A DNA stretch of 64,000 nt from Escherichia coli (GCF_050920415.1 NZ_CP169309.1); one strand, 5' to 3'. Counted from the first letter of the stretch, positions 15,855-54,202 are shown. Notes: a model not told the origin generated them from the sequence alone. Numbers and translations: made by a program.

Positions 15855-16987
15855 GACTGAAGATTCTCCGCAAGCCAGGTAGCCAGTTCGCCTGGCGTCA
15901 TCGCGGCTATTTGTGCGCCGACATTTACCAGCGCCTGGGCTGTATCGCGGTCGTAGCAAGGTGTTGCGGTGCTATCGAGCGCTGCCAGTCCCAGCACTTT
16001 GATGCCGCTCTGGACACACTTTTTCACCTGATGCGTCAGCAAAGATGATGAACCCCCTTCATAAAAATCGCTCACGAGTATGATGACGCTTTTCGCTGGT
16101 TGTTCAATAAGTTGCCGACCATATTCCACGGCACTGGCGATATTGGTCCCGCCGCCCAATTGTACTTTCATTAATAACTCTACCGGATCGGCAACGTCGG
16201 CAGTGAGATCGACGACGTTAGTGTCAAAAGCGACCAGATGGGTACGAATGCCGGGTAACTGCCATAAACAGGCCGCCATCACCGCTGAGTGGATCACCGA
16301 GTCAACCATCGATCCGCTTTGATCAACCAGTAACACCAGCTGCCATTGTTCGCTATGGCGCTTAATGCGACTGTTAAAGCGGGGGGATTCGATATACAAC
16401 TTGCCGTGTTGCGGGTGCCAGTGTTGCAGGTTGGCGCGCAGAGTACTTTTGAAATCGAAATTACGCGCCAGTGGAATAAATGAGCGGCGACGGCGATCGC
16501 GGACACCAGAAAAAGCCTGACGAACTTCCTTTGCCAGTCGCGCCATAATTTCTTCAACAACCTGGCGCACTATCCGGCGGGCGGCAGCCAGCACTTCGGG
16601 ATTCATCAGATGTTTGGTGTGCAAAACGGCGCGTAACAGGCTTTCAGAGGGCTGCATACGTTCCAGCACGTCGAGATTTGTCACTACATCTTCAATGCCA
16701 TAGCGCAGTACAGCATCGCTTTCCAGCCGCTCAATCACCTGTTGCGGAAACAGCGTGTGAATACTGTTGATCCAATCAGGGGTGGTGAGATTTGAGCCAC
16801 CTAATCCACCGGAGCGTTCACCACGCTGGAGCCGTTCAGGATCGCGCCCGTACAGCCACTCCAGCGCGTGGTCCATCCGCCGGGCGTTGTCATCCAGCCC
16901 ACAAAGCGTCGTTTCTGCCGCTTCGCCAAGAATTAATCGCCAGCGTTGTAGCTCACGAGTGGTCAGAAGATCGTTCAGTTCAGACAT
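15851..16987 (-). CDS. yehP: von Willebrand factor A (VWA) domain protein
   Basis: ORF 15851..17215; start at ATG 16987 (MSELNDLLTTREL...), 378 aa; MIDAS-like DQSGS motif; start overlaps the yehM stop. Confidence 0.85.
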   Translation of the reverse strand: MSELNDLLTTRELQRWRLILGEAAETTLCGLDDNARRMDHALEWLYGRDPERLQRGERSGGLGGSNLTTPDWINSIHTLFPQQVIERLESDAVLRYGIEDVVTNLDVLERMQPSESLLRAVLHTKHLMNPEVLAAARRIVRQVVEEIMARLAKEVRQAFSGVRDRRRRSFIPLARNFDFKSTLRANLQHWHPQHGKLYIESPRFNSRIKRHSEQWQLVLLVDQSGSMVDSVIHSAVMAACLWQLPGIRTHLVAFDTNVVDLTADVADPVELLMKVQLGGGTNIASAVEYGRQLIEQPAKSVIILVSDFYEGGSSSLLTHQVKKCVQSGIKVLGLAALDSTATPCYDRDTAQALVNVGAQIAAMTPGELATWLAENLQS

Positions 16988-19259
16988 GGAAAACTCCCCA
17001 GTGTTGCAGTGATGCCAGTGCCTGCTGTTCGAGCTGTTGATGATGTGCAATGGCTTGCGGTGGGCAATGCAACGGCATTTGCAGCGCCGAAACGGGAAGC
17101 TGAGCGAGCTGGTAATGCTCAAGCACCTGATGCGCCAGCGTCCCGCGTTCTCGTGGCGGTAGCCAGGCCATCGCCGCGCGCAAATCGGGCAGGGCGTTAA
17201 TAAAATCGGCGTCACTCAGTTGATTCAAATGGCTGCTGAAACCGGCGATAAATGCAGGCTGACTGGCCAGTTGATGGCGGGCTAATGCCAGCAAACCGTG
17301 CAGCGCCTCGCCAGATTGTGCCGGGGATAATTGTGCCAGCATCGTCAGCGCCGCTTCGGCACTGGCGTTGGGATGTTCCAGACGCATCAGCGCGCCAAGG
17401 GCCGCACCGCGATCCAGCGCTGGGGCATGAATCGCCTGACTGCGACGTTCCAGTAAGGCTACCGCCGCAGAAAGCGAAACGCCGGGTAAATTAACGCCGC
17501 TATTTAGATCGCGCAGGATATGGCAAAGCGCCTGCCAGCTATGCAGGTGAGCGTGAAACTCCTTCTCATCCGGCCTGCCGTTGGATTCACATAGCCACAG
17601 TGTGCGATCGATAGCCGCGTATAACGTCGTCTGTAATATCTGCGCGCCTTGCATACCGCTGATTTCATCGAGCTGCCACAAGGCGTAAAGCACTTCCAGC
17701 GCCTGGCCCATTTCGGCAAACTGATTTTCCTGGGCGATTAATAATGTGAGTTGTTCCAGTAATTGCTGACTGAAGGACGCCAGACCCGCTAACGCTGCCT
17801 GGCTAAGACATGTGGTGATGCCGCTGATTCCACCCGCGTCCAGCATATCGGCTTCTAATTTATTGCGTGCGGCCTCCTGGAGGGTGGCACCAAAGCAGGC
17901 GGCTTCAATCAATGCCGCATGTTGGCTAAGTGGCTGGGTTAATGTCCAGCGTTCTTCACCGTTGCCCGCCAGCGTCAGTGTACTTCCGTGCTGGCGCACA
18001 ATGCCGGGAATCTCCAGTATTGCCAACCGATGTAGCACCTGACTTTGCGCCAGTCCATCGGGGGGAAAGCGATTTAAGGTAAGCTCCGCCGGAAGAGAGA
18101 TTCCGGTACGTTCCAGTTCGCAGGTGACATCTTTTGGCAGAGGTGGCTGTGGCGTCGAGGGGGCAAGTTTACCGAATCCGTCACCTGCTAATGTGTCTAT
18201 CAACGTTACCAGTATCGGATCGGTATCGGGATGAATAACGCCGCGATAGCTCCACGGCAACGGCGCGTTCAGGGCTTCTTTGATCAGCGAGCCTGCTATA
18301 GCATCCAGCCAGTCAGTGCGTAACGGTAGTGTATGACCGCGCAACTGTGCCAGTGCCATCGCATGCAGATGAGCGGCAGCCATATCCGCTGTTGAAGCAG
18401 GCAAGTGGTGCTGGCGCAAACGGGTAAGAACCGTTTTTAGTAGTTGTTCACCTGCCTGCTGCAAGCCCCACCGCCAGCACCAGTTTTGCCAGACCGGGGC
18501 AGGCATTCCTGAAAGGTATCCTGCCAGCACATCAAGGCGCTTTTCACTGTATGGCGTGAGATAGCAACCTGTAACGGCATCTGCCAGCGAAGGCAATTCT
18601 GGCTTGTTCATTTCTTGCAAACATTCGCGCCACATTTTTGCCAGTGCCGGAGCGTGCCAGCCACCACAGACGACTAACACGCCGCCATTGTTTTGCTGCA
18701 TCGCCCATGCAATCCAGTGGGCCATAAAGGCTTCGCGCTGACGATTGAGCGCATCGCCGGGGTAGTCGCCCCGCAGTTGGGCAAAATAGTGCGCCAGTGC
18801 ATAGGGTAATATAGTTTGCTGGCTTTCATCTTCGAACAGGTGATCCCACAGGGTGTCGCTGTTATCCATACGAGTGGCACGCAGCAACAAAGCCTGGCTT
18901 TCCTCTTGCGTACCGGGTGACTCGTCCTCTTCTTCACTCTGCGCCCAGCAAGGCAAATCAATAAAGTAAGTTTGTGCCTGAATATGACGTGCGGTTTGTA
19001 GCGCCTGCCACTCCGGCGAAAATTCAGCAAATGGCGTCCAGGCGCCACGTCCGGGGGCAGCACCGTCCTGATACTGGCAATAACTGTAAATCGCCACCGG
19101 AAGCTGGTGGGCTAAAAACAGTTCGTCTATCCGGTCATTAAAATCCGCCGGGCCTTCAATCAACACGTATCGCGGCCGCTGGTTTTCGATTAACGATTTC
19201 ACCAGTCGGGCGCAGGCCGGGCTATGATGCCGGATGCCGACAATTAACGGCTCGCTCAT
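16980..19259 (-). CDS. yehM: large uncharacterized protein (YehM family)
   Basis: ORF 16980..19400; start at ATG 19259 (MSEPLIVGIRHH...), 759 aa; 10 nt downstream of the yehL stop. Confidence 0.8.
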   Translation of the reverse strand: MSEPLIVGIRHHSPACARLVKSLIENQRPRYVLIEGPADFNDRIDELFLAHQLPVAIYSYCQYQDGAAPGRGAWTPFAEFSPEWQALQTARHIQAQTYFIDLPCWAQSEEEDESPGTQEESQALLLRATRMDNSDTLWDHLFEDESQQTILPYALAHYFAQLRGDYPGDALNRQREAFMAHWIAWAMQQNNGGVLVVCGGWHAPALAKMWRECLQEMNKPELPSLADAVTGCYLTPYSEKRLDVLAGYLSGMPAPVWQNWCWRWGLQQAGEQLLKTVLTRLRQHHLPASTADMAAAHLHAMALAQLRGHTLPLRTDWLDAIAGSLIKEALNAPLPWSYRGVIHPDTDPILVTLIDTLAGDGFGKLAPSTPQPPLPKDVTCELERTGISLPAELTLNRFPPDGLAQSQVLHRLAILEIPGIVRQHGSTLTLAGNGEERWTLTQPLSQHAALIEAACFGATLQEAARNKLEADMLDAGGISGITTCLSQAALAGLASFSQQLLEQLTLLIAQENQFAEMGQALEVLYALWQLDEISGMQGAQILQTTLYAAIDRTLWLCESNGRPDEKEFHAHLHSWQALCHILRDLNSGVNLPGVSLSAAVALLERRSQAIHAPALDRGAALGALMRLEHPNASAEAALTMLAQLSPAQSGEALHGLLALARHQLASQPAFIAGFSSHLNQLSDADFINALPDLRAAMAWLPPRERGTLAHQVLEHYQLAQLPVSALQMPLHCPPQAIAHHQQLEQQALASLQHWGVFHV

Positions 19260-19269
19260 GCATCTTTCC

Positions 19270-20358
19270 TCACGGCAGGCGGTGGCGAGCTTGATAATAA
19301 GCCTGCCAGTGAGCTTCTTTATGTGTAGCGACACGTTGTTCGAAGTAACGGCGCAGACGTGCGCGATCTTCTTCGTTATCTTTGACGATGGTTCCGGCAA
19401 TACAGTCCACCAGGTCGGCTGGCTCCCCCGCGCGATTCGCTAAAAACCAGGCGCGGACGCCCACAGCGTGGGCCACGTTCACGGCTTCAGCGGTGGACAT
19501 AATCGCTGTCAGTGTATCCATTGACGTTTTCTTTTCGCCGTTGGCACGCAGATCGCGGAAGGTGCGTACCAGTAACTCAAGTACCGCGTCAGGCACTTTA
19601 TGCGGAATACCGCTATGGGCCAACAAACGCGCCGAAGCACTGGCGACCAGTTCCAGCTCCTGAGCAAAATCCATAATCGGAAAGACAGTTTCAAAGTCGA
19701 ATCGGCGTTTTAGTGCCGCGCTCATTTCATTAACGCCGCGATCGCGGGTATTGGCGGTGGCAATAATATTAAAGCCTTCCCGCGCATAGAGCTGACTGGC
19801 TTCACCAGTGAGTTCCGGCACCGTCATAACCCTGTCAGAAAGCATACCTAACAGACAGTCTTGTACTTCCAGTGGTGTACGCGTTATCTCTTCAAAACGG
19901 ACAATTTTGCCGTCGCGCATTCCTTGGTAGAGCGGGGCAGGGACCAGCGCTTCCGTTGACGGACCATGATTAATAAGCAGGGCGTAGTTCCAGCCGTACT
20001 TGATTTGATCTTCGGTGGTAGATGCGCCGCCCTGGATAGTTAACCCAGCATCGCCGCTAATAGCGGTTGCCAGTAATTCAGACAGGAGAGATTTTGCGGT
20101 GCCAGGTTCCCCCACCAACATCAAACCGCGCCCGGTAGCAAGAGTGACTAACATGCGTTCGACAGCGGAGGGACTAATCACGACTTTACGGCTGATATTT
20201 TGCGCGCTATCGCCAAGAATAAAAGAACGGGCCGCAGGCAAACTTAACTGCCAACCGGGCGGGCAAGGTGCGTTATCATTTTGCTTTAATTTTGCCAGTT
20301 CATCGGCGTATAACACAGCGGCAGGCGGACGCTGCAGATGATTATTCTGCGGTGACAT
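19270..20358 (-). CDS. yehL: MoxR-like AAA+ ATPase
   Basis: 362 aa; Walker A GEPGTAKS; first gene of the yehLMPQ operon. Confidence 0.85.
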   Translation of the reverse strand: MSPQNNHLQRPPAAVLYADELAKLKQNDNAPCPPGWQLSLPAARSFILGDSAQNISRKVVISPSAVERMLVTLATGRGLMLVGEPGTAKSLLSELLATAISGDAGLTIQGGASTTEDQIKYGWNYALLINHGPSTEALVPAPLYQGMRDGKIVRFEEITRTPLEVQDCLLGMLSDRVMTVPELTGEASQLYAREGFNIIATANTRDRGVNEMSAALKRRFDFETVFPIMDFAQELELVASASARLLAHSGIPHKVPDAVLELLVRTFRDLRANGEKKTSMDTLTAIMSTAEAVNVAHAVGVRAWFLANRAGEPADLVDCIAGTIVKDNEEDRARLRRYFEQRVATHKEAHWQAYYQARHRLP

Positions 20359-20551: not shown

Positions 20552-20557
20552 GAACGA

Positions 20558-20879: not shown

Positions 20880-21138
20880 CGGGCAAATTGAAACGCATCT
20901 AAGGGGGAATACCGTCTCCCTCTTTAATAAAGCTATACTCGTCATAATTCAAGTTGCATGTGCTGCGACTGCGTGTTATTCGGCCCATCCATGGACCTCA
21001 CCCCTTACGGGGCCGCTGCAAGTAGCGTTCAAATCCGCTCCATGCGGATTTGTCGTTCACCCCAGTCACTTACTTTAGTAAGCTCCTGGGGATTCACTCG
21101 CTTATCGCCTTCCTGCAACTTGAATTATTTAGAGTATA

Positions 21139-21456
21139 TTATTCTATTTCTTGGTTGAATATATTCTGTAGTTCACGATTAAAAATAGCGATTACAGTTT
21201 CAGGTGATTCACCTCGTAATTTTCGCTCATCAATAAATTCATCTCTTATATAAATCAACGCATCATTTATTAGCGGGTCGGCATCATCTCTATCACGTTG
21301 ATGAAATGTTGGACGTAGCCGGAATCGTTCCTGTCGATAGACGGAACCTGTAAATAATTCAGAGCATTTATGGATCTCAAGTCTGAAGGAAAACGGATCT
21401 TCAGGTACAGGGACTTCATAATCATAAGTAGCGACCAGCTCTTTTTGCACGATCAT
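21139..21456 (-). CDS. yehK: small uncharacterized protein, 105 aa
   Basis: ORF 21139..21456, 60 nt downstream of yehI on the same strand; size and position match K-12 yehK. Confidence 0.7.
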   Translation of the reverse strand: MIVQKELVATYDYEVPVPEDPFSFRLEIHKCSELFTGSVYRQERFRLRPTFHQRDRDDADPLINDALIYIRDEFIDERKLRGESPETVIAIFNRELQNIFNQEIE

Positions 21457-21516
21457 CGCTTTTCCCGGTGGTAAGTCGTGTTGATAACGGGCAGTCGCAT
21501 CACTGCCCGCTGTGTT

Positions 21517-24500
21517 TTAATGGAAAATGACGTCAGGTGCGCTTAACGCTTCACTCAAATCAAACGTATCGAGTTCGGCAAAAGTGACAGATTTATTGTC
21601 ACGGTACACTCGAAGAGAACGGAAGCTCATTAGCGCTTTGCTATCAGCACTGTAGTGGTTAAAACCGGGTGAAAACTTAAGGACCAGCCGATACTCGCCC
21701 AGGTCATAGACACATGCGTCCTCAAAACCTGACTCCCAGCCTTTGTATCGCATTCCCATAAGTTGCCCAACGGTTGCGGATTTACCTTCCCAGCGAGTCA
21801 GGCTGTTACTGGCTGACTCGTCAGGTGTGAGCAGCACTGTGCGCCGCATCAACTGGCGAAAAGGCTGCATAATTTCGTAATCGGCAAAAACCTGTGCAAA
21901 TTCACTGCGCATTTCTGCTGTCATTTCTAACGGGTGGGCAATGCCAATCAGAGCATCCGCAGGCAGGTCAATTGGCTCATCTTGTGCGTTGCAGAACTCC
22001 CCCTCAGCGGCCACACGAAAGGCGTTGAGTAAACGACGCGGTTCATTTGCCGGATAAACCGCCCATATTAATCGCTGAGTAACCAGGCGAGTAAAGGGAT
22101 GATTAACAAACAGAGAATGAAAATCTGCCAGCGACCAGCGTCGGGTGGTGCGTAGGGCAGTTTCAAGACGCGGGAGCAGGTTTTTGCTCACCTGAGTGGC
22201 ATCTTTTTTTAGCCCTTTTAGTCGGGCCAGTGCCTCGGGCGCTTTCAGTTGATCGTCATCGGCGCGCAACCGGGGAACACTTTTCTGGCGAACGTTTTGC
22301 TGATCAAAGATAACCGGGTTGAGGTTTTCATCGAAGCGAACGGTAAACTGCCGGGGACCAAAATCAAATATCAACGCCTGCGGATCATCCAGGCCCAGTG
22401 TTGGGACTAATCTGTCCGCTAACTCTTCCTGGCTTAGTCCACGATTTTCTGCGACCACCTGAAGAAATTCCGCCGCGTTATCACGTAAGGGACGGGATTT
22501 CGCCCGTTGCGATATATGATGCAGCTGTATCAGTGCCATATCATTATTCATCTGAGTAAGTATATTCAGACCACTGACAGCACGGGCAGATTTGCCCTCT
22601 TGAGGCCAGGCAAGGATCTGTGTCGTCAGATTCCGAGCCGTGCTTTCGTCACCAAAGAGACTTAACGCCAAAAAAGCCCAGTTGTCTTTTGCGGGGGCGC
22701 CAGCCTGTTGCCAGGCGGTGAAGAGATCCCAGGCAAAAGCGGCCAGCGTTTGTGGCTGGCAGAACGTTTTCAGTTGTTCCAGCCCGCAATAAAAACGTCC
22801 GCCCTGGGTAAAGCGCAGCATTTCGCCAATAATTTCCAGAGCGTCATCAGTAACAGGTTGATTATTCGTGATAAGTCTCGGCCTGGACCACATTGCCGGA
22901 TGCCAGAAATCAGGGGCTTTGGGAATGCGTGCCGGGTAAATCTCTATTGGACTCTGTTTAAGTAATTGCTCCAGGGCAGGCCATACATCTGTACGCTGCC
23001 AACGATTGGCTACAGTTTGTAGCAATTCGCCATGTCCTTGTTCATACAGTAAACGCAGAGCATTGAGTGCCGCTTCGCTGTTATCGCCAGACCTGGCAAA
23101 GATTAATGGGATCAGCGCCGTAGCCGTATGCTCCGGCCATTGTAAAATCCACTGGCGAGCCAGATTACGCTGGCCCGCAAAACGATGCCAGACGCGGGCA
23201 ACGGGCAGCGCCAGTTCTGTTGCGCCAAAATGAATCAGCAGCGGAAATATCTCTTTGGGATGTCGGGCAAAGGCGGTGATTAATCCGGGCAAAGCATCGG
23301 TACCCAGCACACTTAACAGATATTCCACCCCGGTGTAATGAAAATCAGCCGCGACAATTTGTTGCCAGCACGATACTGCCATTTCGCGCGGCATTTGCGC
23401 GATAAGGTACAGATTCCACACTCCCCAACGCTTTTCATCAGTGTAATTAAATTTGCGTTGGAAAGTTCGCCACCCCTCCATCAACGCAACGCTATCTTGT
23501 GCCAGTAATGCGCTGGCGGCCTCTTCCCGGTAGTGTTTATTTTCAGTCTGTTTTGCCTGATAATTGAGCAATCTTCCTAATGAAGTATGTGTCTCTAGTT
23601 GATCGGTATCCAGAGCATCCAACTGTCCTGTGAGAATAAACTCATTAAACTTCCACCTGTGATCTTCAAAACCTAATTCCCGCAAGAAGGTATCGGTTCC
23701 TCTGCTAGCGAGACGTTCGTCAAAAGGCATGGCGCTAAAATGGCTGATTGTAGTTTGTTGTTCCTGCGTCCAGTGTTCCTGGGACGACCTGTACGCTTGC
23801 GGTACAAGCGTAAGTTCAGGTAGCGAAAAGTGAGTTATGGAAGTCTTTTTTCTGCCACGCCACGGTGGCGAAACGAGGATTTCAGGCAGACTGCTGTTAT
23901 CGGTGCTATCAATAACCGGTTTTGGCGAAGCCGATAAATAACTATTCACCACTGCCCGGGCTTGAGTACTTAACCACGGCATCACCTCTTCTGCCAGTTG
24001 TGGCTGCGATGCCATCAGCGTTTGTAACAGCGTATGCCAGTATTCATCACGTGCTTTTTGCTGTGCAGGCAGCTTTTTGTCTTCGATGATAGGATAACCA
24101 GGGCGCGCAGGGGGTTCTTTTAACGCCAGTAGTTCTGCCAGTGCGGCGAGCGTCGCATGGGGAAAGTTTTTACTGTATTTAGCCACACGTTGCAGGCTGG
24201 GTTTGTTTTTATCGGCAACTAACAGCAAGATGCGAATAACTTGCGGATGGTTAATTTGTACCAGCAGGCTACCGCAATCTTCTTTATGGGCATACATCGC
24301 GAGGCGTGGAACGGCTGCAATTCCCTGTTCGCGCAAAAGGGCGGCGCAGGCCGCGTAGCCGAAGTGGTTTTCATGCGACATGTAGCTGGCTTCGCGATCG
24401 CTAAATATATCCTGGCTCCAGTAGCGTTCGAGTTTTCTCACCGCTCTGGGGTCATTAGCAACAACTTTTAACCACTCCTTAGAATGAAAATGAGTCCGCG

Positions 24501-25167
24501 GGCATTCAAGGCCTACCAACTCATTGGCGATTTCTGGTTTCTCCGGGAGGATGAGTGCAATAAAAGGACGGCGAACTTTGGGTATTCCTGGCAGTGCGGC
24601 AATGAGTTTGTCGGCGCAACGCTGCCAGCAGCTTTCCTCTGCCAGAGAGAGATGCTTACGCAGTCGGAGATCGAATTCGTTATAGGTTTCTGAGCGATAA
24701 CCATAGCCATAACCATCGTCCTCGTTCTGATACTGCAATGTTACTACCAGAGGATCACTCTCATAACACCGTACAATAAACTGGCGTGCAATCACCACTT
24801 CAGTCGCATATTCCAGTCCCTCTTGTTGGACGATTTCATCGAGCAACTGTTGGCTATCATTTTGCGCGATACAGGCTAGCGCCGCCATTGTCCGGGCCGG
24901 AATTGAGGGGTTGTGCTCGCCTATCAAGTTGATGGCTTGCGTAATGGCCGACTGCCACTCCAGTGAAAAATTTTCATAACGCCAGACGATGTTTTTTTTC
25001 TTCTCAGCAATGTGTAGCAATTTATCACCCAGTGTCTGGATGAGGCTTTCAGTGATAACAGGCACCGGTTCGCCCGGCCAATTGCGATGGCTGAGTGGTG
25101 TTTTGCCTTTTTTATATTTCAGTTCCAGTTGGGCGTTATCCGCTAGCCACGGTAATTCCTTGTCCAT
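21517..25167 (-). CDS. yehI: large MolR/YehI-family protein (DUF4132-type), without the N-terminal WGR domain
   Basis: 1216-aa ORF; central and C-terminal regions share blocks with the two upstream paralogs (e.g. DFGPRQFTVxFDExL, HPLxxxLTxRLIW); starts 9 nt after the upstream paralog stop. Confidence 0.85.
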   Translation of the reverse strand: MDKELPWLADNAQLELKYKKGKTPLSHRNWPGEPVPVITESLIQTLGDKLLHIAEKKKNIVWRYENFSLEWQSAITQAINLIGEHNPSIPARTMAALACIAQNDSQQLLDEIVQQEGLEYATEVVIARQFIVRCYESDPLVVTLQYQNEDDGYGYGYRSETYNEFDLRLRKHLSLAEESCWQRCADKLIAALPGIPKVRRPFIALILPEKPEIANELVGLECPRTHFHSKEWLKVVANDPRAVRKLERYWSQDIFSDREASYMSHENHFGYAACAALLREQGIAAVPRLAMYAHKEDCGSLLVQINHPQVIRILLLVADKNKPSLQRVAKYSKNFPHATLAALAELLALKEPPARPGYPIIEDKKLPAQQKARDEYWHTLLQTLMASQPQLAEEVMPWLSTQARAVVNSYLSASPKPVIDSTDNSSLPEILVSPPWRGRKKTSITHFSLPELTLVPQAYRSSQEHWTQEQQTTISHFSAMPFDERLASRGTDTFLRELGFEDHRWKFNEFILTGQLDALDTDQLETHTSLGRLLNYQAKQTENKHYREEAASALLAQDSVALMEGWRTFQRKFNYTDEKRWGVWNLYLIAQMPREMAVSCWQQIVAADFHYTGVEYLLSVLGTDALPGLITAFARHPKEIFPLLIHFGATELALPVARVWHRFAGQRNLARQWILQWPEHTATALIPLIFARSGDNSEAALNALRLLYEQGHGELLQTVANRWQRTDVWPALEQLLKQSPIEIYPARIPKAPDFWHPAMWSRPRLITNNQPVTDDALEIIGEMLRFTQGGRFYCGLEQLKTFCQPQTLAAFAWDLFTAWQQAGAPAKDNWAFLALSLFGDESTARNLTTQILAWPQEGKSARAVSGLNILTQMNNDMALIQLHHISQRAKSRPLRDNAAEFLQVVAENRGLSQEELADRLVPTLGLDDPQALIFDFGPRQFTVRFDENLNPVIFDQQNVRQKSVPRLRADDDQLKAPEALARLKGLKKDATQVSKNLLPRLETALRTTRRWSLADFHSLFVNHPFTRLVTQRLIWAVYPANEPRRLLNAFRVAAEGEFCNAQDEPIDLPADALIGIAHPLEMTAEMRSEFAQVFADYEIMQPFRQLMRRTVLLTPDESASNSLTRWEGKSATVGQLMGMRYKGWESGFEDACVYDLGEYRLVLKFSPGFNHYSADSKALMSFRSLRVYRDNKSVTFAELDTFDLSEALSAPDVIFH

Positions 25168-25176
25168 GCTCTTTCC

Positions 25177-28100
25177 TTATTCAAACAGGGCTTCAATATC
25201 GTTAATCAACTCGCTGGCGGTGATGTCATCGAGTGCGGAGAACTGCGCTTCCTGTGTTGAATGACTCCCCCAGCCATAGCTTTCTGCTTTGCCTTCCCAT
25301 AGCCACAGCTTGCTTAAGAGTTGCTCGGCACTGAGTTCGGCTGGCGACATACCAACTGCAAATCCTTCATCGATTTCCATGATTAATGACCAGCGGCCCA
25401 GAGGTTTGATCATCCAGCCGATCCAGCCACCGTCCTGCGGTTCACCACGCATCCAGCCTTTATTCGCCAGCCCCATTACCCGACCGCTCGGGCATTTTCT
25501 GCCTGCCCAGCGGGTCAATTCGCTGGCATTGCGCTCGGTTTCTGTCAGGGCATAACTGTTGCGGTCGAGCTGGCGGAACGGCGGTAACAGCTCGTAGTCG
25601 GCAAAAAGCTGACCAAAGGCGGCGGCATCCGTCGGTGATATTTCCAGAACGTGAGGAATACCAATAGAGATATCGCCTTCCGGCAGGGTGAAAAGATCAT
25701 CGTCAGCGGTGCTGTAGCTGTTATCTTCCGCCACACGGAAGCACGCCAGTAACTGGTTGTCTGCGCTATAAATGCCCCAAATCAGACGGCGGGTTAAGTG
25801 GCAGACCAGCGGATGCTCAACCAGAAAGAGCTGAAAGTTTTCCGGCGACCAGCGGCGGCGCAGGCACATGGCGGATTCCAGCCTTGCCACCTGCTGGGCG
25901 GCAACGGTACGCGCATCTTTTTTCAGCAGTTTGTAGCGGTTAACTGCATCGTTCGCTTGGGTTTCATCATCGCTTTTGTTCGGTTTAGGCAAGTCTTTCA
26001 GGCGGCTGCCGGAAACATCGCGCACAAACGGTTTTAAGGTTTCATCAAAGCTGACGGTGAACTGCCGTGGGCCAAAATCCAGCAGCAGCGAACCGTTATC
26101 ATCCAGACCGAGATCCGGTGCTAACCGGTCTTCAAGCTCCGCCACCGTGAGTTCGCGGCTCTCGGCAATGTCGGCAATTTTTTCTTTTGCCCGCTCCTGT
26201 AATGCTTTGAATTTCAGTTTCTGGGCGATGCCGTTAAGCTGCATCAGGGCGATATCACTACCGATAGCAGCGAGGATATCCAGCCCGACGGTGGCGCGTT
26301 TATGCTGGGATTCACCAGGCCAGGCGCGGATTAATGGCGTCAGTTTGCGGGCGGTGTCATCGTTGCCAAGAACACCTAATGCAGTGAACGCCCAGCTCTC
26401 TTTCGACGGCGCGCCAGCGGTCTCCCAGGCGGTAAACAGATCCCAGGCAAACTCAGCCAGTGAGTCGGCAGTACAGGCGTCTTTCACCTGTAATAACCCC
26501 GGATACAGCGTATCTTCCTGAGGGAAGCGAAGCATTTCACCGAGGTGGAAGAGGGCGCTATCTGGCAGTGATTGGGCGTTTGCTTTTAATACCGGGCGCG
26601 TCCAGAGCGATGGCTGATAAAAGGCCGGAAGAGTGGGGATTTTTGTCGGGTGATTATCTAAGGGATCGAGCGCTAGCAGAGCGTTCACCGCGTCTGTTAC
26701 TTCCGGCTGGTTATAACGCCGGGCGATTTCTTGCAATAATGGCTGATGACCGTTTTCTGTAAGCATACGCAAGGCAGCGCGGGCGTTGTCCTGCGCTTCA
26801 CCGGCTTTGCCGAGCGCCGCGGGCAGCAGGCCGGTAATGGCGTGTTCCGGGTATTTCAGCAGCCAGCTACGGGCGTCTTGTCGTAGGGTTTTGAGTTTGT
26901 TGAAGGCGCGGGCGACGGCAGGAGCCAGCTCACTCGCTGCGAAGTAATTCGTTATGGGCAAGGCTTCCTGTGGATAGCGTGCAAGTGAGTTTACTAACCC
27001 AGGTAATCCTTTGAGTCCAAAATGTAACATGGCGTATTCGGTATCGGTATGCGGAGATACAGTAAGGGCATTCCATGCTCTTATTGCTTTCTCCAGCGGC
27101 AATGTTGTCAAAATCCCCAAATGCCAATAATGCCCGGTAGGTGAATGAAACACCTTAAATTCACTTATTAAGGTTGCATAATCTTCATTTAGCCATGCCT
27201 CAACTACCGCTTCGGGAGCTTTAATATATGTACCAGCGATCCGTCGTTGAAAACCCATCCTTGCCAACAGATTGGCAGTACTTTCTTCATGACTAACCGT
27301 GATGTGTTTTGAATACCAGATATATTTCGCCAAAAGTTGATTACTGATTTCTTCTGTCAGATAACTGATTGGCTCAATGCCTAATGGTGCTAAATCAAGC
27401 ACCGGAATCGACGATTTTTTCTTTTTCGAAAGCCATGGTGGGGAGACTACTATGGCCGGCAGTAGATCGGTGCTGGCATGGTTTGAGGGCTGTGTCAGTT
27501 GTTGCTGGCATGATTTCAGCACTGCAGCTGCGGGTGTCGAAAGCCAGGGAATGACCTGTTCTGCCAGTGCTGGTTGCGAGATAAGCATCGTCATTAGCAT
27601 AATGCGCCAACTATTCTCTTCTTTTTGCACTAGAAGTTCCGCCAGTGCTGCCAGTGCTGCGTGTGGGAACGCAGCGCAGGCTTTCGTCATTCGATCGTGA
27701 CAGCGTTTAGTATGCCCGGCTACACGTATAAGCAGTGTTAATGCGAACGGATGATTGATATGACGCAACACATCGGCGCAGTAGTCACTTGCGGCATAGG
27801 GAGCAAATCGGGGCAGGGCTGCAACACCTTGCTCCTGTAATACGGTGGCTGACCATATCGCACCACAATAGTAATCATCAAAAATGGCATATGGCTCGTG
27901 ATATTTTTCTAATGAGGCAAGAATGTGCTCATCAGTCGCCACTATTTTTAGCCACTCAAGCGAGGGTAATTTTTTTTTCCCCAGTAGACGCTGGGCAATT
28001 TCATGTGCAATTTCTGGTTTTTCGGGTAATAACATAGCAATTAATGGTTGCCGCCATTCTGGAATATGTGGAATTGCGGCAATAAGTTTTTGTGCACATT

Positions 28101-28971
28101 TTTGCCAGAGAGACTCTTCCGCCAGTGATAAATGTTTCCGTAGGCGTAATTCAAAACTGGAATATTGCTGCAAGTTATCAGGTGCAATGCCAGACGGCAG
28201 AATAATAATGATATTATTCGCATAATTCCATTCAATATCAATCTGTTGAAGGTGTATTATTACATCAGTAGCATATTCCAGACCGCCTTCCTGAATGATC
28301 TGATCCATAACATCCTCACGCACTTTATATCTTGTGCATTTCATTTCAAGTGCCGTGAGTACAGCCATTACTGGTGATGGTAACTGTGTTGTTTTCAGGC
28401 AGTCGATCTGACTGATCGCCTGGGCGACGGTGTTTTGCCATACTAAAGAACAGGCGCTGAAGTCAAATGTGGCTGTTTTATTATCCCGTTGCGACACGCT
28501 ACAGGCTAAGCGACGTAACTGGGTCAAGTTGTCTGCTTGCTGAACAGGAACTCCGGGAAAGCGGCGATGGCTTAACGTGGTGTGTACAACTTCGGGCGGA
28601 AAAACGACAGCAATATCTTTCGCCAGCCACGGTAAAACATCATCTGTATTTTTGTCAGCCACACGGGCTTCTGCTACGCAAAAGGGTTGTTCCTGAATAA
28701 TGGTGGATAAGGCCGCTACCTTGAGAGAATCCGTTACCGTTTGGGAAGGTTGCAAAGAATTATCCTTCGCTTGCTCCACATACCCCTTCTTCACCTTCTC
28801 CGCAATCAGCCTCAGTTCCGCTTTTTCCGCCGCCGCAGCATCAGCAAAGCTTTTTACCTGGCTTTGCCCGTTGGTACTGACTTTGCCCCAACTAATATGC
28901 AGCTCGTTTCCCTGTTGCTCCACTGCCCAGAATTTATGTGATTTTTCGTCCTGATAAATATAGGTTTTCAT
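25177..28971 (-). CDS. molR: MolR-family protein with N-terminal WGR-like domain (intact; recalled as a pseudogene in K-12)
   Basis: 1264-aa ORF; N-terminus MKTYIYQDEKSHKFWAVEQQGNELHISWGKV; 12 nt downstream of the upstream paralog. Confidence 0.8.
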   Translation of the reverse strand: MKTYIYQDEKSHKFWAVEQQGNELHISWGKVSTNGQSQVKSFADAAAAEKAELRLIAEKVKKGYVEQAKDNSLQPSQTVTDSLKVAALSTIIQEQPFCVAEARVADKNTDDVLPWLAKDIAVVFPPEVVHTTLSHRRFPGVPVQQADNLTQLRRLACSVSQRDNKTATFDFSACSLVWQNTVAQAISQIDCLKTTQLPSPVMAVLTALEMKCTRYKVREDVMDQIIQEGGLEYATDVIIHLQQIDIEWNYANNIIIILPSGIAPDNLQQYSSFELRLRKHLSLAEESLWQKCAQKLIAAIPHIPEWRQPLIAMLLPEKPEIAHEIAQRLLGKKKLPSLEWLKIVATDEHILASLEKYHEPYAIFDDYYCGAIWSATVLQEQGVAALPRFAPYAASDYCADVLRHINHPFALTLLIRVAGHTKRCHDRMTKACAAFPHAALAALAELLVQKEENSWRIMLMTMLISQPALAEQVIPWLSTPAAAVLKSCQQQLTQPSNHASTDLLPAIVVSPPWLSKKKKSSIPVLDLAPLGIEPISYLTEEISNQLLAKYIWYSKHITVSHEESTANLLARMGFQRRIAGTYIKAPEAVVEAWLNEDYATLISEFKVFHSPTGHYWHLGILTTLPLEKAIRAWNALTVSPHTDTEYAMLHFGLKGLPGLVNSLARYPQEALPITNYFAASELAPAVARAFNKLKTLRQDARSWLLKYPEHAITGLLPAALGKAGEAQDNARAALRMLTENGHQPLLQEIARRYNQPEVTDAVNALLALDPLDNHPTKIPTLPAFYQPSLWTRPVLKANAQSLPDSALFHLGEMLRFPQEDTLYPGLLQVKDACTADSLAEFAWDLFTAWETAGAPSKESWAFTALGVLGNDDTARKLTPLIRAWPGESQHKRATVGLDILAAIGSDIALMQLNGIAQKLKFKALQERAKEKIADIAESRELTVAELEDRLAPDLGLDDNGSLLLDFGPRQFTVSFDETLKPFVRDVSGSRLKDLPKPNKSDDETQANDAVNRYKLLKKDARTVAAQQVARLESAMCLRRRWSPENFQLFLVEHPLVCHLTRRLIWGIYSADNQLLACFRVAEDNSYSTADDDLFTLPEGDISIGIPHVLEISPTDAAAFGQLFADYELLPPFRQLDRNSYALTETERNASELTRWAGRKCPSGRVMGLANKGWMRGEPQDGGWIGWMIKPLGRWSLIMEIDEGFAVGMSPAELSAEQLLSKLWLWEGKAESYGWGSHSTQEAQFSALDDITASELINDIEALFE

Positions 28972-28983
28972 TGCTAAATCCTT

Positions 28984-31900
28984 TTAATCAAACAATGATT
29001 CAATGTCGTTAATCAGCTCGCTGGCGGTGATGTCGTCGAGCATGGAAAAAGTAAGTAAAGGTTGTTTACCGTAGCGATCATCTGGCGAGGTGATTTTTAC
29101 GCTTTCAACAGGTAACAGGTCGCCATAACCTGTTTCACCATAAATTAATGAAAAATGTTCTGTTTCAAGTTCGAGATCGCCATAAGGGGTAGATTTGCGC
29201 ATCGCATAGACGCTGCCGCTTTCTTCCAGACGTTGCCAGCCTCGGCGCTCTAGCCCGACAATACGTCCGGCCTGACAGAGCTGTCCTTGCCAGCGTGTCA
29301 GGTCGTGGGTATTCCGTTCATTATCAGCAAGACGATAACTACCACGATCGAGCTGTTGGAAGGGGGGAAGCAGTTCGTAATCAGCGTAAATTTGCCTGAA
29401 TGCAGCGGCAGATTCAGGGGGGATCTCCAGCACATGCGGTATACCGATGTTTCCTGCTGGCAGCGTGAATAACTCATCCTGCGCATCGCTGTAAGTGCTG
29501 TCTTCTGCGACCCGGAAGCAGGCAATCAGCGTGTTTTCCTCAGTATATACTCCCCATAACAGCCGTCGGGTTAAGTGACGTACCAGCGGATGCTCCACCA
29601 GAAACAGGCGGAACTGTTCTGCCGTCCAGCGTCTGCGCTGGCACATAGCCTGCTCCAGACGATCAATCTGCTGACTGGCAATGGCGCGCACATCTTTCTT
29701 CAATTGTTTGAAGAGGTTAACGGCGTCAGTTGCCAGTGTTTTATCATCGCTCTGATTTGGTTTGGGTAAATCTTTCAGGACTTTGCCGTTTGCATCGCGC
29801 ACTACAGGTTTTAAGGTTTCGTCAAAAACAACGGTGAATTGACGTGGGCCGAAATCCAGTATCAGCGAGCCACTGCTATCAAGCCCTAAATCTGGAGCCA
29901 GGCGGTCTTCCAGTTCAGCCATAGTCAGCCCACGGTTTTCAGCAACTATGTTGATTTTCTCGCGGGCATGTTCCTGTAATGCAACGAATTTAATCTTTTT
30001 CGCAATGCCATTAAGCAGCATTAGCGCAACATCGCTGCCAATATCAGCTAATACATCCAACCCGGACACCGCCCGTTTATGCTGTGATTCCCCAGGCCAG
30101 GCACGGATAAGCGGGGTTAATTTACGCGCGGTGTCGTCATTGCCTAAAATCCCCAGCGAAGTAAATGCCCAGTTTTCTTTTGCGGGTGCGCCAGCTTCTG
30201 TCCAGGCGGTATACAGATCCCAGCCAAAGTCAGCCAGTGATTCGCGAGTGAAGGTTTCTTTGATGATCTCCAGCCCAGCGTAGGCGGTAATGTCGCGAGG
30301 AAAGCTCAGCATAGTGCCCAGGTGGCGCATAGCGTCATCTGGTAGAGGCAGGTTGTTACTTTTAAGCCGTGGTCTGCGCCATAAGGTGAACTGATAAAAG
30401 CCGGGCAGTGGGGCGATTTTTGCGGGATATTCTTCCAGAGGATCGCTATCAAATAATGTTGCCAGCGCAGCTAAAACATCAGGTTGATTATATCCTTGCG
30501 CGATTTTCTCAATCGTTTCTCGCTGGTTTAATTTCACTAGCAGTCGGAGCGCCTGGCGGGCATATTCCCGATTTTGGCACGGTTTGCCCAGCGCCAAAGG
30601 CAGTAGCCCGGCGGCGGCATGGCGCGGGTTATTTGCCAGCCAATTAACGGCATCCTTGTAAGCCATTTTTTTCTGTAACCGCTGCGCCATTGGTAAGGCT
30701 AGTTCACTGGCCCCAATAAAGAGGGTGAATATCCACAGTCGTTGATGATCTCGTTGCAAGCAGGTCATAAACGCAGGAATGGCCGTACTACCAAAAACTG
30801 CCAGAATCTCTTTCTCACCTGAATATCGCTCCTCAATGATTATTTGGTTGAGAAATGAAATCGCCTGTTGTCCCGGTAAGTAACAAAGCGCAGATAAATT
30901 CCAGCTTTTGTTGGCATTGTTGTGATATTTCGCAAACTCAGCTTTTAGTGCTGGAAAATCAAAGCGCAACAAGGCATCAACAGCGCTTTGCGGTATGTGT
31001 TTTTTTTCATGTAAGTCATCTTCGCAATGCAGCCATTCATTAAAACCTAATTGCCAAAGGATTTGTTGTTCTGGTGTAAAAGGAATGAAAGATGTCTCCC
31101 AGCTTTCTTTTTCAATTAGTGGTAGGTCGGTAAATAAGGTTTGCTGTGATGCCTGATATTTCGCGATTTCACTGAATCTGGATATGTCAGTGTGACTGAT
31201 TAACTCTGTAATTCCAGGTGTGATGTCAGTGACGGAAGGGATGGGAAGTACCGGTAAATCAAATACGGGTATTACATTCTTTTTCTTATTTATTGCCCAC
31301 GGTGGAGCGACAAGCAGCTCTGGCAACATATCCGCAGTGGCATACTCATATTCTTCAGCTACTGACTGAGGACGACATTCAGATAAGATGCCTGCCGCTT
31401 TAGCATTAACCCAGGGAATGACGTCGCGTACTAATTCTGGCGTGACGGTAATCAGTTTGACAAGCGCTTTACGCCACTCTTTGTCTTCATGTATTGCCAG
31501 CAAAGTAGCATAAGCGGCAATAGCCGCAGCGGGATGTTTTTGGCAGGCTTTGCTTAAGTATTCCAGGTGCTTTTTCTTGCCATTTACACCGAGGATCAGA
31601 ATTTGAATCGCATCCGGGTGATTCGTTTTCCATAGCCATTTGACAAGATCTTCAGTCTCGCTGATGCGCTCGAAGAGATAAGTGGGATTGTCAGAATGCT
31701 CTTCCACAAACTCAGTAAGTATCCGGCTTACACCGCGCCCCCCATTATTTGCCAGCAACATTGCCAGATAAGCGCGAAAATCACGATACAACGGTGGGAA
31801 GTCGTATTTTTCTGCTGTAGTCAGAGCTATATCATCGGTTACTACCAGTCTTAACCAGGTTATCGCCGGAACGTTTTGGTCTGCATAATGTAGCGCCATA

Positions 31901-32781
31901 GCATTGGCAATATCCGGGCGTTCAGGGAGCAGTAACGCGGCAAAAGGTTGCCGTGCTGGGGATAGCGTCGGAATAGCAGTAAGCACTTTATCCACACAGC
32001 GTTGCCACTCATCTTCTGAAGCGAGTGAAAGATGATGACATAGACGTTGATGCCAACTCGGTAGCGATTCTGCTTCGTGATTAGGTGGAATGATGGTGGT
32101 TACTGCGCCTTTTACTGGTTTATATTTGAGTTGAAGAGCGAGAAGGGCGATTTCAACGGCACTTTCCAGACCACAGCGAATGACTAAGTCATCGACCAGT
32201 TCATCTTGAGAGTAAGAGTTCCAAAAGCCCCAGAGCAATGCTGCATCAGATTGCGCACTCCCTGTCGGTTGATTACCCTGAACTCGCATTTGTAACTCAG
32301 CAAAAGCCTGCTGCCAGTTTTCTGGATAAGAGCGGTAATTATTGTCGGGGTCATATGCCCTCGTGTTATTCGCGATGCGCTTCCATATTTGGCCATCTTT
32401 GTGCAGATAATTGATATCTCTGGGGCGAGAGCGATGTGGAAAAGCAAATCGGTTAATATCGTCGGTTAGCGGAATGGCTGCATCATCAGCCAGCCATGGG
32501 CGTTTGTTTTTACTCTCAGGTGAAGTTTCAACGTCAGGAGTGACTTTGGTGACGGGGGGGATATGCACGTTTGCCGAAGCGTCTTCCACATAGCCTTTTT
32601 TCGTTTTCTCAGCGATAAGCTTCAGTTCCGCTTTTTCCGCCGCCGCAGCATCCGCAAAGCTTTTTATCTGGCTTTGCCCTTGGGTGCCAACTTTTCCCCA
32701 ACTGATATGCAACTCGTTACCTTGCTGCTCCACCGCCCAGAATTTATGTGATTTTTCGTCCTGATAGATATAACTCTTCAT
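28984..32781 (-). CDS. second MolR-family paralog with N-terminal WGR-like domain
   Basis: 1265-aa ORF; first ~65 aa and last ~25 aa nearly identical to the 25177..28971 paralog, central region diverged. Confidence 0.8.
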   Translation of the reverse strand: MKSYIYQDEKSHKFWAVEQQGNELHISWGKVGTQGQSQIKSFADAAAAEKAELKLIAEKTKKGYVEDASANVHIPPVTKVTPDVETSPESKNKRPWLADDAAIPLTDDINRFAFPHRSRPRDINYLHKDGQIWKRIANNTRAYDPDNNYRSYPENWQQAFAELQMRVQGNQPTGSAQSDAALLWGFWNSYSQDELVDDLVIRCGLESAVEIALLALQLKYKPVKGAVTTIIPPNHEAESLPSWHQRLCHHLSLASEDEWQRCVDKVLTAIPTLSPARQPFAALLLPERPDIANAMALHYADQNVPAITWLRLVVTDDIALTTAEKYDFPPLYRDFRAYLAMLLANNGGRGVSRILTEFVEEHSDNPTYLFERISETEDLVKWLWKTNHPDAIQILILGVNGKKKHLEYLSKACQKHPAAAIAAYATLLAIHEDKEWRKALVKLITVTPELVRDVIPWVNAKAAGILSECRPQSVAEEYEYATADMLPELLVAPPWAINKKKNVIPVFDLPVLPIPSVTDITPGITELISHTDISRFSEIAKYQASQQTLFTDLPLIEKESWETSFIPFTPEQQILWQLGFNEWLHCEDDLHEKKHIPQSAVDALLRFDFPALKAEFAKYHNNANKSWNLSALCYLPGQQAISFLNQIIIEERYSGEKEILAVFGSTAIPAFMTCLQRDHQRLWIFTLFIGASELALPMAQRLQKKMAYKDAVNWLANNPRHAAAGLLPLALGKPCQNREYARQALRLLVKLNQRETIEKIAQGYNQPDVLAALATLFDSDPLEEYPAKIAPLPGFYQFTLWRRPRLKSNNLPLPDDAMRHLGTMLSFPRDITAYAGLEIIKETFTRESLADFGWDLYTAWTEAGAPAKENWAFTSLGILGNDDTARKLTPLIRAWPGESQHKRAVSGLDVLADIGSDVALMLLNGIAKKIKFVALQEHAREKINIVAENRGLTMAELEDRLAPDLGLDSSGSLILDFGPRQFTVVFDETLKPVVRDANGKVLKDLPKPNQSDDKTLATDAVNLFKQLKKDVRAIASQQIDRLEQAMCQRRRWTAEQFRLFLVEHPLVRHLTRRLLWGVYTEENTLIACFRVAEDSTYSDAQDELFTLPAGNIGIPHVLEIPPESAAAFRQIYADYELLPPFQQLDRGSYRLADNERNTHDLTRWQGQLCQAGRIVGLERRGWQRLEESGSVYAMRKSTPYGDLELETEHFSLIYGETGYGDLLPVESVKITSPDDRYGKQPLLTFSMLDDITASELINDIESLFD

Positions 32782-32877
32782 CCGCGTTCCCTGTATTTAT
32801 ATCCAGTTATAAGCGGATGCTAGCAGTTAATGAAAAAAATTAAGAGCGTTGAACAAACAAGAAAACAACTTTAGGAA

Positions 32878-32912
32878 TTCATAAAGAAAAGGCGCTGTCG
32901 ATGCAGCGCCTT
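32878..32912 (-). terminator. metG rho-independent terminator
   Basis: Stem aaggcgctg / cagcgcctt with 7-nt loop; U-rich tract in the minus-strand RNA immediately 3' of the stem. Confidence 0.6.
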
Positions 32913-32921
32913 GAAGGGGGA

Positions 32922-34955
32922 TTATTTCACCTGATGGCCCGGTTTAGCACCGGCATCCGGGCTTAGCAGGAAGATATCTTTCCCGCCAGGACCGGCAGCC
33001 ATCACCATGCCTTCGGAGATACCGAAGCGCATTTTACGTGGTGCCAGGTTAGCCACCATAATGGTGTGACGACCAATCAATGCCTGCGGATCCGGGTAAG
33101 CAGAACGAATGCCGGAGAAGACATTGCGTTTTTCACCGCCGAGATCCAGCGTCAGGCGCAGCAGTTTGTCAGAACCTTCAACAAACTCTGCGTTTTCGAT
33201 CAACGCCACGCGCAGGTCAACTTTGGCGAAGTCGTCAAAGGTGATGGTTTCCTGAATCGGATCATCTGCCAGCGGGCCAGTAACTGGTGCGGCAGTGGCT
33301 TTCACTTCTTCTTTAGATGCTTCCACCAGTGCTTCAACCTGCTTCATGTCAATACGGTTATACAGCGCCTTGAACGGATTCACTTTGTGGCCCAGCAGCG
33401 GTTGCTGGATACCATCCCAAGTCAGTTCCGTATTGAGGAATGCTTCTGCACGCTCGGTCAGTTTTGGCAGTACCGGTTTCAGGTAGGTCATCAGCACGCG
33501 GAACAGGTTAATGCCCATAGAGCAAATCGCCTGCAGGTCAGCATCGCGACCTTCCTGTTTTGCGACTACCCACGGAGCCTGTTCATCGACATAGCGGTTA
33601 GCCAGGTCAGCCAGTGCCATGATTTCGCGCACTGCTTTACCAAATTCACGGCTTTCCCACGCTTCGCCAATCACTTCAGCGGCATCCGTGAAGGTTTTGT
33701 ACAACTGCGGGTCAGCCAGTTCGCTTGCCAACACGCCGTCAAAACGCTTGTTGATAAAGCCCGCGTTACGGGATGCCAGGTTTACAACCTTATTAACGAT
33801 ATCGGCATTCACGCGCTGGACGAAATCCTCGAGGTTGAGATCGATATCATCAATGCGCGAAGAGAGTTTCGCAGTGTAGTAGTAACGCAGGCTGTCAGCG
33901 TCAAAATGATTCAGCCAGGTGCTGGCTTTAATAAAGGTGCCGCGAGACTTGGACATCTTCGCGCCGTTCACCGTTACATAGCCGTGAACAAACAGGTTGG
34001 TCGGCTTGCGGAAGTTGCTACCTTCCAACATGGCAGGCCAGAACAGGCTGTGGAAGTAAACAATATCTTTACCGATGAAGTGGTACAGCTCGGCGGTGGA
34101 GTCTTTCTTCCAGTATTCATCGAAGCTTACGCTGTCGCCGCGCTTGTCACACAGATTCTTGAAAGAACCCATGTAGCCAATCGGTGCGTCCAGCCAGACG
34201 TAGAAATATTTGCCCGGCGCGTTCGGAATTTCAAAACCGAAGTAAGGGGCGTCGCGGGAGATATCCCATTGTTGCAGGCCAGATTCAAACCACTCCTGCA
34301 TTTTGTTTGCCACCTGCTCCTGCAACGCACCGCTGCGGGTCCATGCCTGCAGCATTTCGCTGAAAGAGGGCAGATCAAAGAAGAAGTGTTCAGAATCACG
34401 CATTACCGGGGTAGCGCCAGAAACCACCGATTTCGGCTCGATCAGTTCAGTCGGGCTGTAGGTCGCGCCGCAGACTTCGCAGTTATCGCCGTATTGATCC
34501 GGGGATTTACATTTCGGGCAGGTGCCTTTTACAAAACGGTCCGGCAGGAACATGCCTTTTTCCGGATCGTACAGTTGAGAGATGGTGCGGTTTTTAATAA
34601 AACCGTTTTCCTTCAGGCGAGTATAGATAAGTTCTGACAACTGTCGGTTCTCTTCACTGTGCGTCGAGTGATAGTTGTCATAGCTGATGTTAAAGCCTGC
34701 GAAATCAGTCTGATGCTCCTGACTCATTTCGCCAATCATCTGCTCCGGAGTGATACCAAGCTGCTGAGCTTTCAGCATGATTGGTGTACCGTGGGCATCG
34801 TCGGCGCAGATGAAGTTGACCTCGTGGCCGCGCATTCGCTGGTAACGGACCCAGACATCAGCCTGGATGTGCTCCAGCATATGGCCGAGGTGGATTGAGC
34901 CGTTAGCGTACGGCAGTGCGCACGTCACCAGAATTTTCTTCGCGACTTGAGTCAT
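32922..34955 (-). CDS. metG: methionyl-tRNA synthetase
   Basis: ORF 32922..34964; start at ATG 34955 ([26 protein letters not shown]...), 677 aa; class I HIGH motif and KMSKS present. Confidence 0.95.
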
Positions 34956-52035: not shown

Positions 52036-54193
<2,158 letters not shown>

Positions 54194-54202
54194 GGACGGT
54201 AT

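Follow-up and report, generated by a model that had tools for sequence, protein, structure and literature searches.

What would a bacterium do with three adjacent genes for very large, related proteins that have conserved ends and diverged cores, and why should these genes differ so much from strain to strain? The question is raised by a stretch of 64,000 nucleotides from Escherichia coli strain MFDS1022581 (GCF_050920415.1, NZ_CP169309.1), called the window below, whose minus strand carries three WGR/DUF4132 (MolR/YehI) paralogs, here designated A (28984..32781, 1265 amino acids), B (25177..28971, 1264 amino acids) and C (21517..25167, 1216 amino acids). We consider it about an even call that A, B and C are the variable, target-selecting (adaptor or sensor) subunits of a five-gene MoxR-VWA machine linked to DNA damage or nucleic-acid sensing, the constant part of which would be made up of the MoxR AAA+ ATPase YehL, the VWA adaptor YehP with its metal-ion-dependent adhesion site (MIDAS), YehM (DUF5682) and the SWIM zinc-finger protein YehQ. 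A first-pass annotation of the window regarded the array as an undescribed system, which is too strong, since molR is a listed SOS gene (PMC6590174) and YehL gives its name to one of the seven MoxR subfamilies (PMC3893208). The parts are known singly, as an SOS gene, a MoxR subfamily and Pfam domains of unknown function (DUFs), and it is the whole module, with its expandable variable subunit, that is uncharacterised.

Results

The association of the paralogs with yehLMPQ is conserved across phyla. A scan of one genome per species yielded 69 loci in Gamma-, Beta- and Deltaproteobacteria, Myxococcota and Actinobacteria, 58 of which had enough flanking sequence to be assessed, and a DUF4132 gene lay directly beside homologues of yehL and yehM in 43 of these 58 loci, from about 30 genera. 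The linked loci usually also carried yehP and yehQ in the same order, and look-ups in the reverse direction, from the YehM homologues of Klebsiella, Chitinivorax and Luteimonas, recovered WGR-DUF4132, AAA_5, DUF5682, VWA_CoxE and SWIM proteins in all three cases. The co-occurrence with yehLMPQ that the first-pass annotation had suggested checking was therefore found in both directions, and a search by profile, PDB and structure comparison for a characterised housekeeping family to which the paralogs might belong gave no match. Identity to the E. coli proteins among the loci ranged from 56 to 85% for YehL, 45 to 79% for YehP, 35 to 62% for YehM and 24 to 53% for YehQ. The three Burkholderia loci were permuted, with yehL-M-P-Q first and the WGR-DUF4132 gene after them, adjacent and on the same strand.

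The number of WGR-DUF4132 partners per locus varied widely. Massilia aquatica has at least eight tandem copies upstream of a single yehLMPQ, other Massilia have 4-6, Rhodoferax and Polaromonas have 3, and Rhizobacter and a metagenome-assembled genome of the Rhodanobacteraceae have 2. In the Massilia array, as in the E. coli one, the centre is the divergent part (identity 0.33-0.56), and the WGR domain (0.53-0.76) and the C-terminal half (0.52-0.74) are better conserved. Solitary DUF4132 copies also occur, and the Chitinivorax genome has one solitary and one operon-linked copy. Because arrays recur and solitary copies exist, the family as a whole is characterised, judged from gene order, by divergent partners that vary in number around one constant engine.

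The open reading frames of the window, taken from a six-frame listing, agree with the layout first described, in which the three minus-strand genes of 1265, 1264 and 1216 amino acids are separated by 12 nucleotides (A/B) and 9 nucleotides (B/C) and are followed after 60 nucleotides by yehK. The DUF4132 domain (PF13569) was recognized by Pfam in A (E 2.8e-51, amino acids 999-1182), B (E 8.2e-51) and C (E 6.9e-48). A WGR domain (PF05406) was found at amino acids 8-69 of A (E 3e-18); the N-terminus of B matches a WGR-bearing NCBIfam model that A also matches, and amino acids 1-40 of A and B are 90% identical. Pfam detected no WGR domain in C, and K-12 YehI and the second of the two Klebsiella paralogs are likewise without it. 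In a comparison with the PDB, the WGR domain matched 2ra8, a bacterial WGR protein (E 4e-17), and weakly 2eoc, the WGR domain of PARP3 (E 0.29). Existing annotation calls these genes 'DUF4132' or 'WGR and DUF4132 domain-containing protein'. The family is large, with 9149 matching representatives at 50% clustering, most of them 1150-1300 amino acids long, and its family-wide conservation is confined to the WGR domain and to query amino acids ~600-1190. In addition, the C-terminal tail consensus LDPxxxSELxRDLExL, including near-invariant Ser and Glu residues, is kept throughout the family.

An AlphaFold2 model of C, computed from a 62-sequence alignment, reached a predicted local distance difference test score (pLDDT) of 86.8 and a predicted template modelling score of 0.78; the single-sequence run gave a pLDDT of 41. 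The model consists of ~900 residues of paired helices forming an alpha-solenoid, then the alpha/beta DUF4132 domain and then a terminal helix. By domain content, A and B are composed of WGR, alpha-solenoid and DUF4132, with an acidic C-terminal helix noted in A, and C is composed of alpha-solenoid and DUF4132. No enzyme or effector fold (nuclease, protease, TIR or other) was found in the paralogs. The name 'MolR family transcriptional regulator' is not supported for these proteins, in which Pfam recognizes only WGR and DUF4132 and the model contains a solenoid and an alpha/beta domain, with no helix-turn-helix.

In a three-way alignment, overall identity was 47% between A and B and 34% between A and C; for B and C, a pair without a single window figure, the comparison of B with K-12 YehI, the orthologue of C, stands in (~37%, tblastn). 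When identity was calculated in 40-residue windows, A and B were 88-90% identical in the WGR domain and 60-88% identical in the C-terminal half, identity was 12-45% across the N-terminal and central columns 60-900, and it rose again in the last 17 residues. The paralogs share the tail LDDITASELINDIE(S/A)LF and the blocks DFGPRQFTV and RRW...HP. These windowed values agree with the conserved ends and diverged cores that had been described. Over most of each pair, the third positions of codons for the same residue agreed in only ~0.3-0.6 of cases, which is near saturation, and the paralogs are therefore judged to be an ancient tandem family, with recent duplication excluded. The tandem duplication of the first-pass annotation is therefore better described as an array of ancient paralogs. 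The exception is the WGR module of A and B, encoded by two direct-repeat arms on the minus strand at the 5' ends of A (32585..32781) and B (28775..28971), in which third-codon identity was 0.75 and nucleotide identity 86%; by these values, the module is either homogenised or younger than the rest. The first gene of the locus starts with MKSYIYQDEK in the window, resembling MKTYIYQDEK of B, and with MRHF in K-12, ATCC BAA-2469 and strain 98222, resembling the family consensus MRRFE, which points to conversion of the extreme 5' end of A by B in this lineage.

Variation within E. coli is concentrated in the cores of the proteins. Between strains, most of each gene had a non-synonymous divergence (dN) of 0.01-0.05 and a ratio of dN to synonymous divergence (dS) of 0.02-0.3, and each gene also had a central or N-terminal segment with a dN of 0.3-0.75 and saturated dS. 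These segments covered amino acids ~421-660 of C and, in comparison with ATCC BAA-2469, amino acids 61-700 of B and 481-720 of A. The hyperdivergent central segment of C (23260..23846, minus strand, amino acids ~440-636; dN 0.35-0.7, dS saturated) gave no nucleotide-level alignment to K-12, ATCC BAA-2469 or Sakai, and the allele of the window is rare, with 48 carriers among 5426 genomes even by sensitive blastn. Column entropy, calculated over 116 Escherichia orthologues of A, was highest at amino acids 500-750 and lowest at amino acids 750-1150. The divergent segments appear to be deeply diverged alleles that are kept or exchanged by recombination. Recent positive selection was rejected as their source, given the saturated dS and a dN/dS below 1, and gene conversion from the local paralogs is an unlikely source of the C segment, where identity among the paralogs is no more than 9-30%. 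The source strain is itself somewhat divergent: relative to nearly all other complete E. coli genomes, its gat operon is ~96% and its metG/apbC region 93-94% identical (window 52000-56000 and 32585-36000), and overall identity at the locus is therefore not to be over-read. Its ApbC protein, even so, does not differ from the common allele.

Of 5426 complete E. coli genomes, 5421 have the locus and 1643 (30%) have the A-specific body, so that the claim of strain-variable copy number holds. In J53, a K-12 derivative, we found what had been stated for K-12, namely a single pseudogenised molR plus yehI: the molR copy is the orthologue of B (93% amino acid identity by tblastn) and has a frameshift and a stop, yehI is intact and is the orthologue of C (83.6% amino acid identity between C and K-12 YehI), and A is absent. 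One stretch of 213 nucleotides in K-12 aligns both to window 28775-28988 and to window 32585-32797, and the presence/absence junction of A is therefore placed inside the shared WGR-coding repeat, which is the outcome that unequal recombination between the 5' ends of A and B would produce. Four matches to the locus and one to the A-specific body came from E. coli records typed as plasmids.

Decay was examined in 10 E. coli genomes including the window. All genes were intact in three of them (the window, strain 64 and SCZE5), and the other seven had at least one lesion in the locus, either stops or frameshifts in A, B, yehK or yehM, the molR lesion of Sakai, or a fusion of C with yehM; yehI was intact in 9 of the 10. 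Strain-variable decay, as had been proposed, is thus seen in this sample. Three independent structural lesions were noted: in E. coli 98222 a deletion has fused yehI (N-terminal part) with yehM (C-terminal part), in strain 200164 an IS1 insertion parts WGR from DUF4132, and in Sakai the molR region is annotated as one pseudogene of ~6.8 kb. In a published sublineage of sequence type 131, a resistance transposon is located in this region (PMC9334617), and many E. coli fragments in the AlphaFold database are labelled 'split' or 'interrupted'.

The first-pass annotation missed a LexA (SOS) box-like site, CTGGATATAAATACAG (32791..32806, minus strand), which a search for the pattern CTG-N10-CAG located 10 nucleotides upstream of the ATG of A and downstream of the metG terminator. 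At the same position, K-12, ATCC BAA-2469 and strain 98222 carry CTGGATAAAATTACAG. A review (PMC6590174) lists molR with the E. coli genes whose SOS box is known, and refers for this to Fernandez de Henestrosa 2000 and Courcelle 2001. The array of the window is thus putatively LexA-regulated, with induction taken from the literature on K-12 molR. Related genes are likewise linked to damage in Deinococcus. In D. radiodurans, DdrO binds the DRA0165-DRA0166 operon (DUF4132) and DR2173 (WGR), both of which have sites of its recognition motif (the radiation/desiccation response motif, RDRM), and mitomycin C induces them in a way that requires IrrE (PMC8533742). In D. deserti, the first of five genes in an operon with a MoxR ATPase among its products is a SWIM gene induced by radiation (Deide_18730 operon; PMC4007540). 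Damage induction in Deinococcus is independent of LexA, with DdrO/IrrE as the regulator instead, and in D. radiodurans WGR and DUF4132 are on separate proteins.

The MoxR-VWA operon that had been reported beside the array is present as annotated, on the minus strand. YehL (19270..20358) is a MoxR-class AAA+ ATPase (AAA_5) with the P-loop GEPGTAKS, YehM (16980..19259, 759 amino acids) is a DUF5682 protein (Pfam E 1.3e-97), YehP (15851..16987, 378 amino acids) is a VWA protein of the VWA_CoxE type with the MIDAS motif DQSGS at amino acid 222 and no additional domain, and YehQ (13863..15854, 663 amino acids) is a SWIM zinc-finger protein with two CxCx5CxH motifs; these engine motifs are intact. 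Orthologues of YehP carry PF05762 and PF13519. The closest solved relatives of YehL are the AAA modules of midasin, and a sequence search of the PDB found none for YehM, YehQ and YehP. The overlaps of yehM with yehP (8 nucleotides, 16980-16987) and of yehP with yehQ (4 nucleotides, 15851-15854) suggest that both pairs are translationally coupled. A +1 frameshift has been predicted for yehP (PMC2790909).

Between the paralogs and yehL is wedged yehK (21139..21456, minus strand, 105 amino acids), which had been counted with the array. It has no Pfam match, tblastn found nothing in the 69 loci of other genera, and 73 of 73 homologues are from Escherichia or Shigella; by this distribution, yehK is an Escherichia/Shigella-restricted orphan outside the conserved module. 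The interval from yehK to yehL also contains one copy of the type I toxin-antitoxin pair zorO/orzO, consisting of the OrzO RNA (20469-20544, minus strand; Rfam RF02083, 98.9 bits) and a ZorO reading frame of 29 amino acids, MDTLTQKLTVLIAVLELLVALLRLIDLLK (20790-20879, plus strand). K-12 lacks this pair and O157 has two (PMC2887945). The Klebsiella locus, which is syntenic from metG to btsSR and has two paralogs, lacks both yehK and zorO. Since this locus is without them and yehK is confined to Escherichia and Shigella, yehK and zorO/orzO are considered lineage-specific insertions that lie outside the module. The reported adjacency to a toxin-antitoxin locus is thus correct for the window and is an Escherichia-specific feature. 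All eight proteins encoded at 13863-32781 also match PHROGs families at E = 0 (for example, phrog_20839, phrog_30700 and phrog_29006); these matches are most likely host genes inside over-extended prophage calls and give no evidence of phage origin.

Discussion

This work suggests how the constant and variable parts might operate together. The proposal builds on the domains, the fold class, the gene neighbourhood, the arrays, the allelic hypervariability, the SOS box and the induction in the SOS and radiation/desiccation responses, each of which is documented here or in published work. In Escherichia, LexA would keep the array off and DNA damage would bring about its expression. The WGR domain, possibly together with the SWIM protein, would then read a feature of the nucleic acid, such as a DNA end, a gap or another structure, and the divergent central solenoid would bind a partner specific to the paralog and to the allele. 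In characterised MoxR-VWA pairs, the MIDAS site grips an acidic residue of the client and the ATPase ring remodels the client (PMC3893208, PMC7159879). On this precedent, the conserved C-terminal half (DUF4132) and the acidic terminal helix would dock on the MIDAS site of YehP and on the YehL ring, and ATP use by YehL would bring about remodelling, release or activation of the complex. With more than one paralog on a shared engine, the system would have several specificities. We infer every physical interaction in this scheme, as well as the ligand of the WGR domain, what the acidic tail does and what the system brings about.

Several observations weigh against this proposal. The tie between the paralogs and YehLMPQ rests on conserved gene order, as judged from the genomes compared, and 15 of the 58 testable loci are unlinked. 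In E. coli itself, the array and yehLMPQ are parted by yehK and zorO/orzO, and yehL and yehM are reportedly silenced by H-NS, so that their co-expression with the array is not assured. The frequent pseudogenes in E. coli, including those of yehM, argue for dispensability. Upstream of homologues in Serratia, Erwinia, beta-proteobacteria, actinobacteria and myxobacteria, no SOS box of the form expected for the lineage was found; therefore, conserved SOS control is not claimed, and damage control may be specific to some lineages. Furthermore, the D. deserti operon is likened to yehLMPQ by description only.

Comparison with known systems places the module near several of them. It shares with the MoxR/VWA pairs RavA-ViaA, NorQ-NorD, CbbQ-CbbO and CoxD-CoxE an AAA_5 MoxR ATPase and a MIDAS VWA protein in one operon, and differs from them in always adding DUF5682 and SWIM proteins and one to many WGR-solenoid-DUF4132 genes. 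With the vWA-MoxR ternary conflict systems (Kaur et al. 2020, PMC7159879) it has in common the MoxR-VWA core and large, variable, repeat-rich components, and the proposed logic is alike, in that an AAA+/VWA pair gates a sensor; that paper makes no mention of WGR, SWIM or Yeh. Assignment to the VMAP type of these systems was rejected, as VMAP, iSTAND, FtsH and beta-propeller proteins are all lacking and YehP carries no effector domain. Retron type XIII (Mestre et al. 2020, PMC7736814) also combines a WGR-like and HEAT/ARM protein with a SWIM protein, but has neither MoxR nor VWA, and the similarity was non-significant (WGR_XIII, E 0.0063; no PADLOC match for YehQ). This type, too, was rejected, with no reverse transcriptase among the genes from yehR to metG and OrzO as the only Rfam match in 13000-36000. 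The WGR domains of PARP1-3 belong to the same Pfam family, PF05406, and the paralogs differ from these proteins in having no ADP-ribosyltransferase domain. The WGR domain of PARP proteins contacts DNA breaks. Finally, a polymorphic toxin/immunity locus was considered and rejected, since the C-terminal half is conserved, the centre is variable and no toxin fold was found.

The alternative that overlaps most with our proposal is an immune or conflict system, in which the paralogs would be receptors for molecules of phages or mobile elements, with YehLMPQ as the gate to a response of the abortive or interference kind; it differs from our proposal in having a non-self ligand and a defence output. 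Tandem receptor-like arrays of up to at least eight copies, deeply divergent central alleles such as the rare C allele of the window, and common presence/absence and pseudogenisation would all be in keeping with immunity, as would the pairing in retron type XIII of a WGR-like and HEAT/ARM protein with a winged-helix and SWIM protein (PMC7736814), the proposal of vWA-MoxR ternary modules as conflict systems (PMC7159879), and the presence of the toxins hokE, dinQ and symE in the SOS regulon. However, a scan of the eight proteins against PADLOC-DB v2.0.0 gave only WGR_XIII on A, at a non-significant 13 bits, none of the effector folds looked for was found, and dN/dS was below 1 wherever it could be computed. 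The locus also occupies a fixed core position in nearly all E. coli genomes and is syntenic in Klebsiella, and its neighbours in the Pfam-annotated loci are ordinary metabolic and regulatory genes, with no defence-island or mobile-element context. The conflict function put forward in the first-pass annotation is therefore plausible but unproven, and we consider it possible and, on balance, unlikely. A somewhat more doubtful suggestion is that the WGR-HEAT-DUF4132 repertoire and the MoxR-VWA-DUF5682-SWIM machine form a widespread, damage-induced genome-surveillance or immune system, in which tandem, allelically hypervariable proteins would be the receptors and the machine would turn the binding of a ligand into a response of the cell, and it is with the same reserve that we suggest such a system to be a bacterial counterpart of receptor-array immunity that has gone unnoticed in the E. 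coli SOS regulon.

The variation could also reflect relaxed constraint and recombination in a decaying relic without current function in E. coli. The lesions in seven of the ten sampled genomes, the split and interrupted database fragments and the tolerated transposon (PMC9334617) and insertion sequences would be expected of a relic, but the dN/dS values outside the divergent segments, the intact yehI in nine genomes and the three genomes with every gene intact speak for constraint, as do the strong conservation of the module across phyla and the SOS box kept among strains, and we regard this explanation as improbable. Slightly less probable still is a maturation chaperone for a metalloenzyme or respiratory complex, comparable to CoxD/CoxE, NorQ/NorD, CbbQ/CbbO or RavA/ViaA, with the DUF4132 proteins as assembly scaffolds. 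Characterised MoxR-VWA pairs are maturation factors (PMC3893208, PMC9976466), the orthologues of YehP are of the VWA_CoxE type, and the old name of molR, 'molybdate metabolism regulator', would fit. Against this, no client enzyme gene is conserved beside the module, the flanks of which differ in every genus, multi-copy hypervariable arrays and allelic segments would be unexpected for the scaffold of a single enzyme, molybdenum genes did not respond along with the Deinococcus homologues, and Pfam finds no helix-turn-helix or other regulator domain.

The proposal of variable subunits on a MoxR-VWA engine bears on several questions. The molR gene has been in SOS regulon lists since 2000, and K-12 has only a dead copy of it, which may explain why it has been neglected; the window offers the intact three-gene form. 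The link between the paralogs and the module provides a concrete hypothesis, and strains, for the last uncharacterised MoxR subfamily in E. coli. Work on it would show if the bacterial WGR domain matches the role of the eukaryotic PARP WGR domain as a sensor of DNA breaks. If it is true that the variable partners are receptors for foreign molecules, the module would represent a new class of bacterial immunity.

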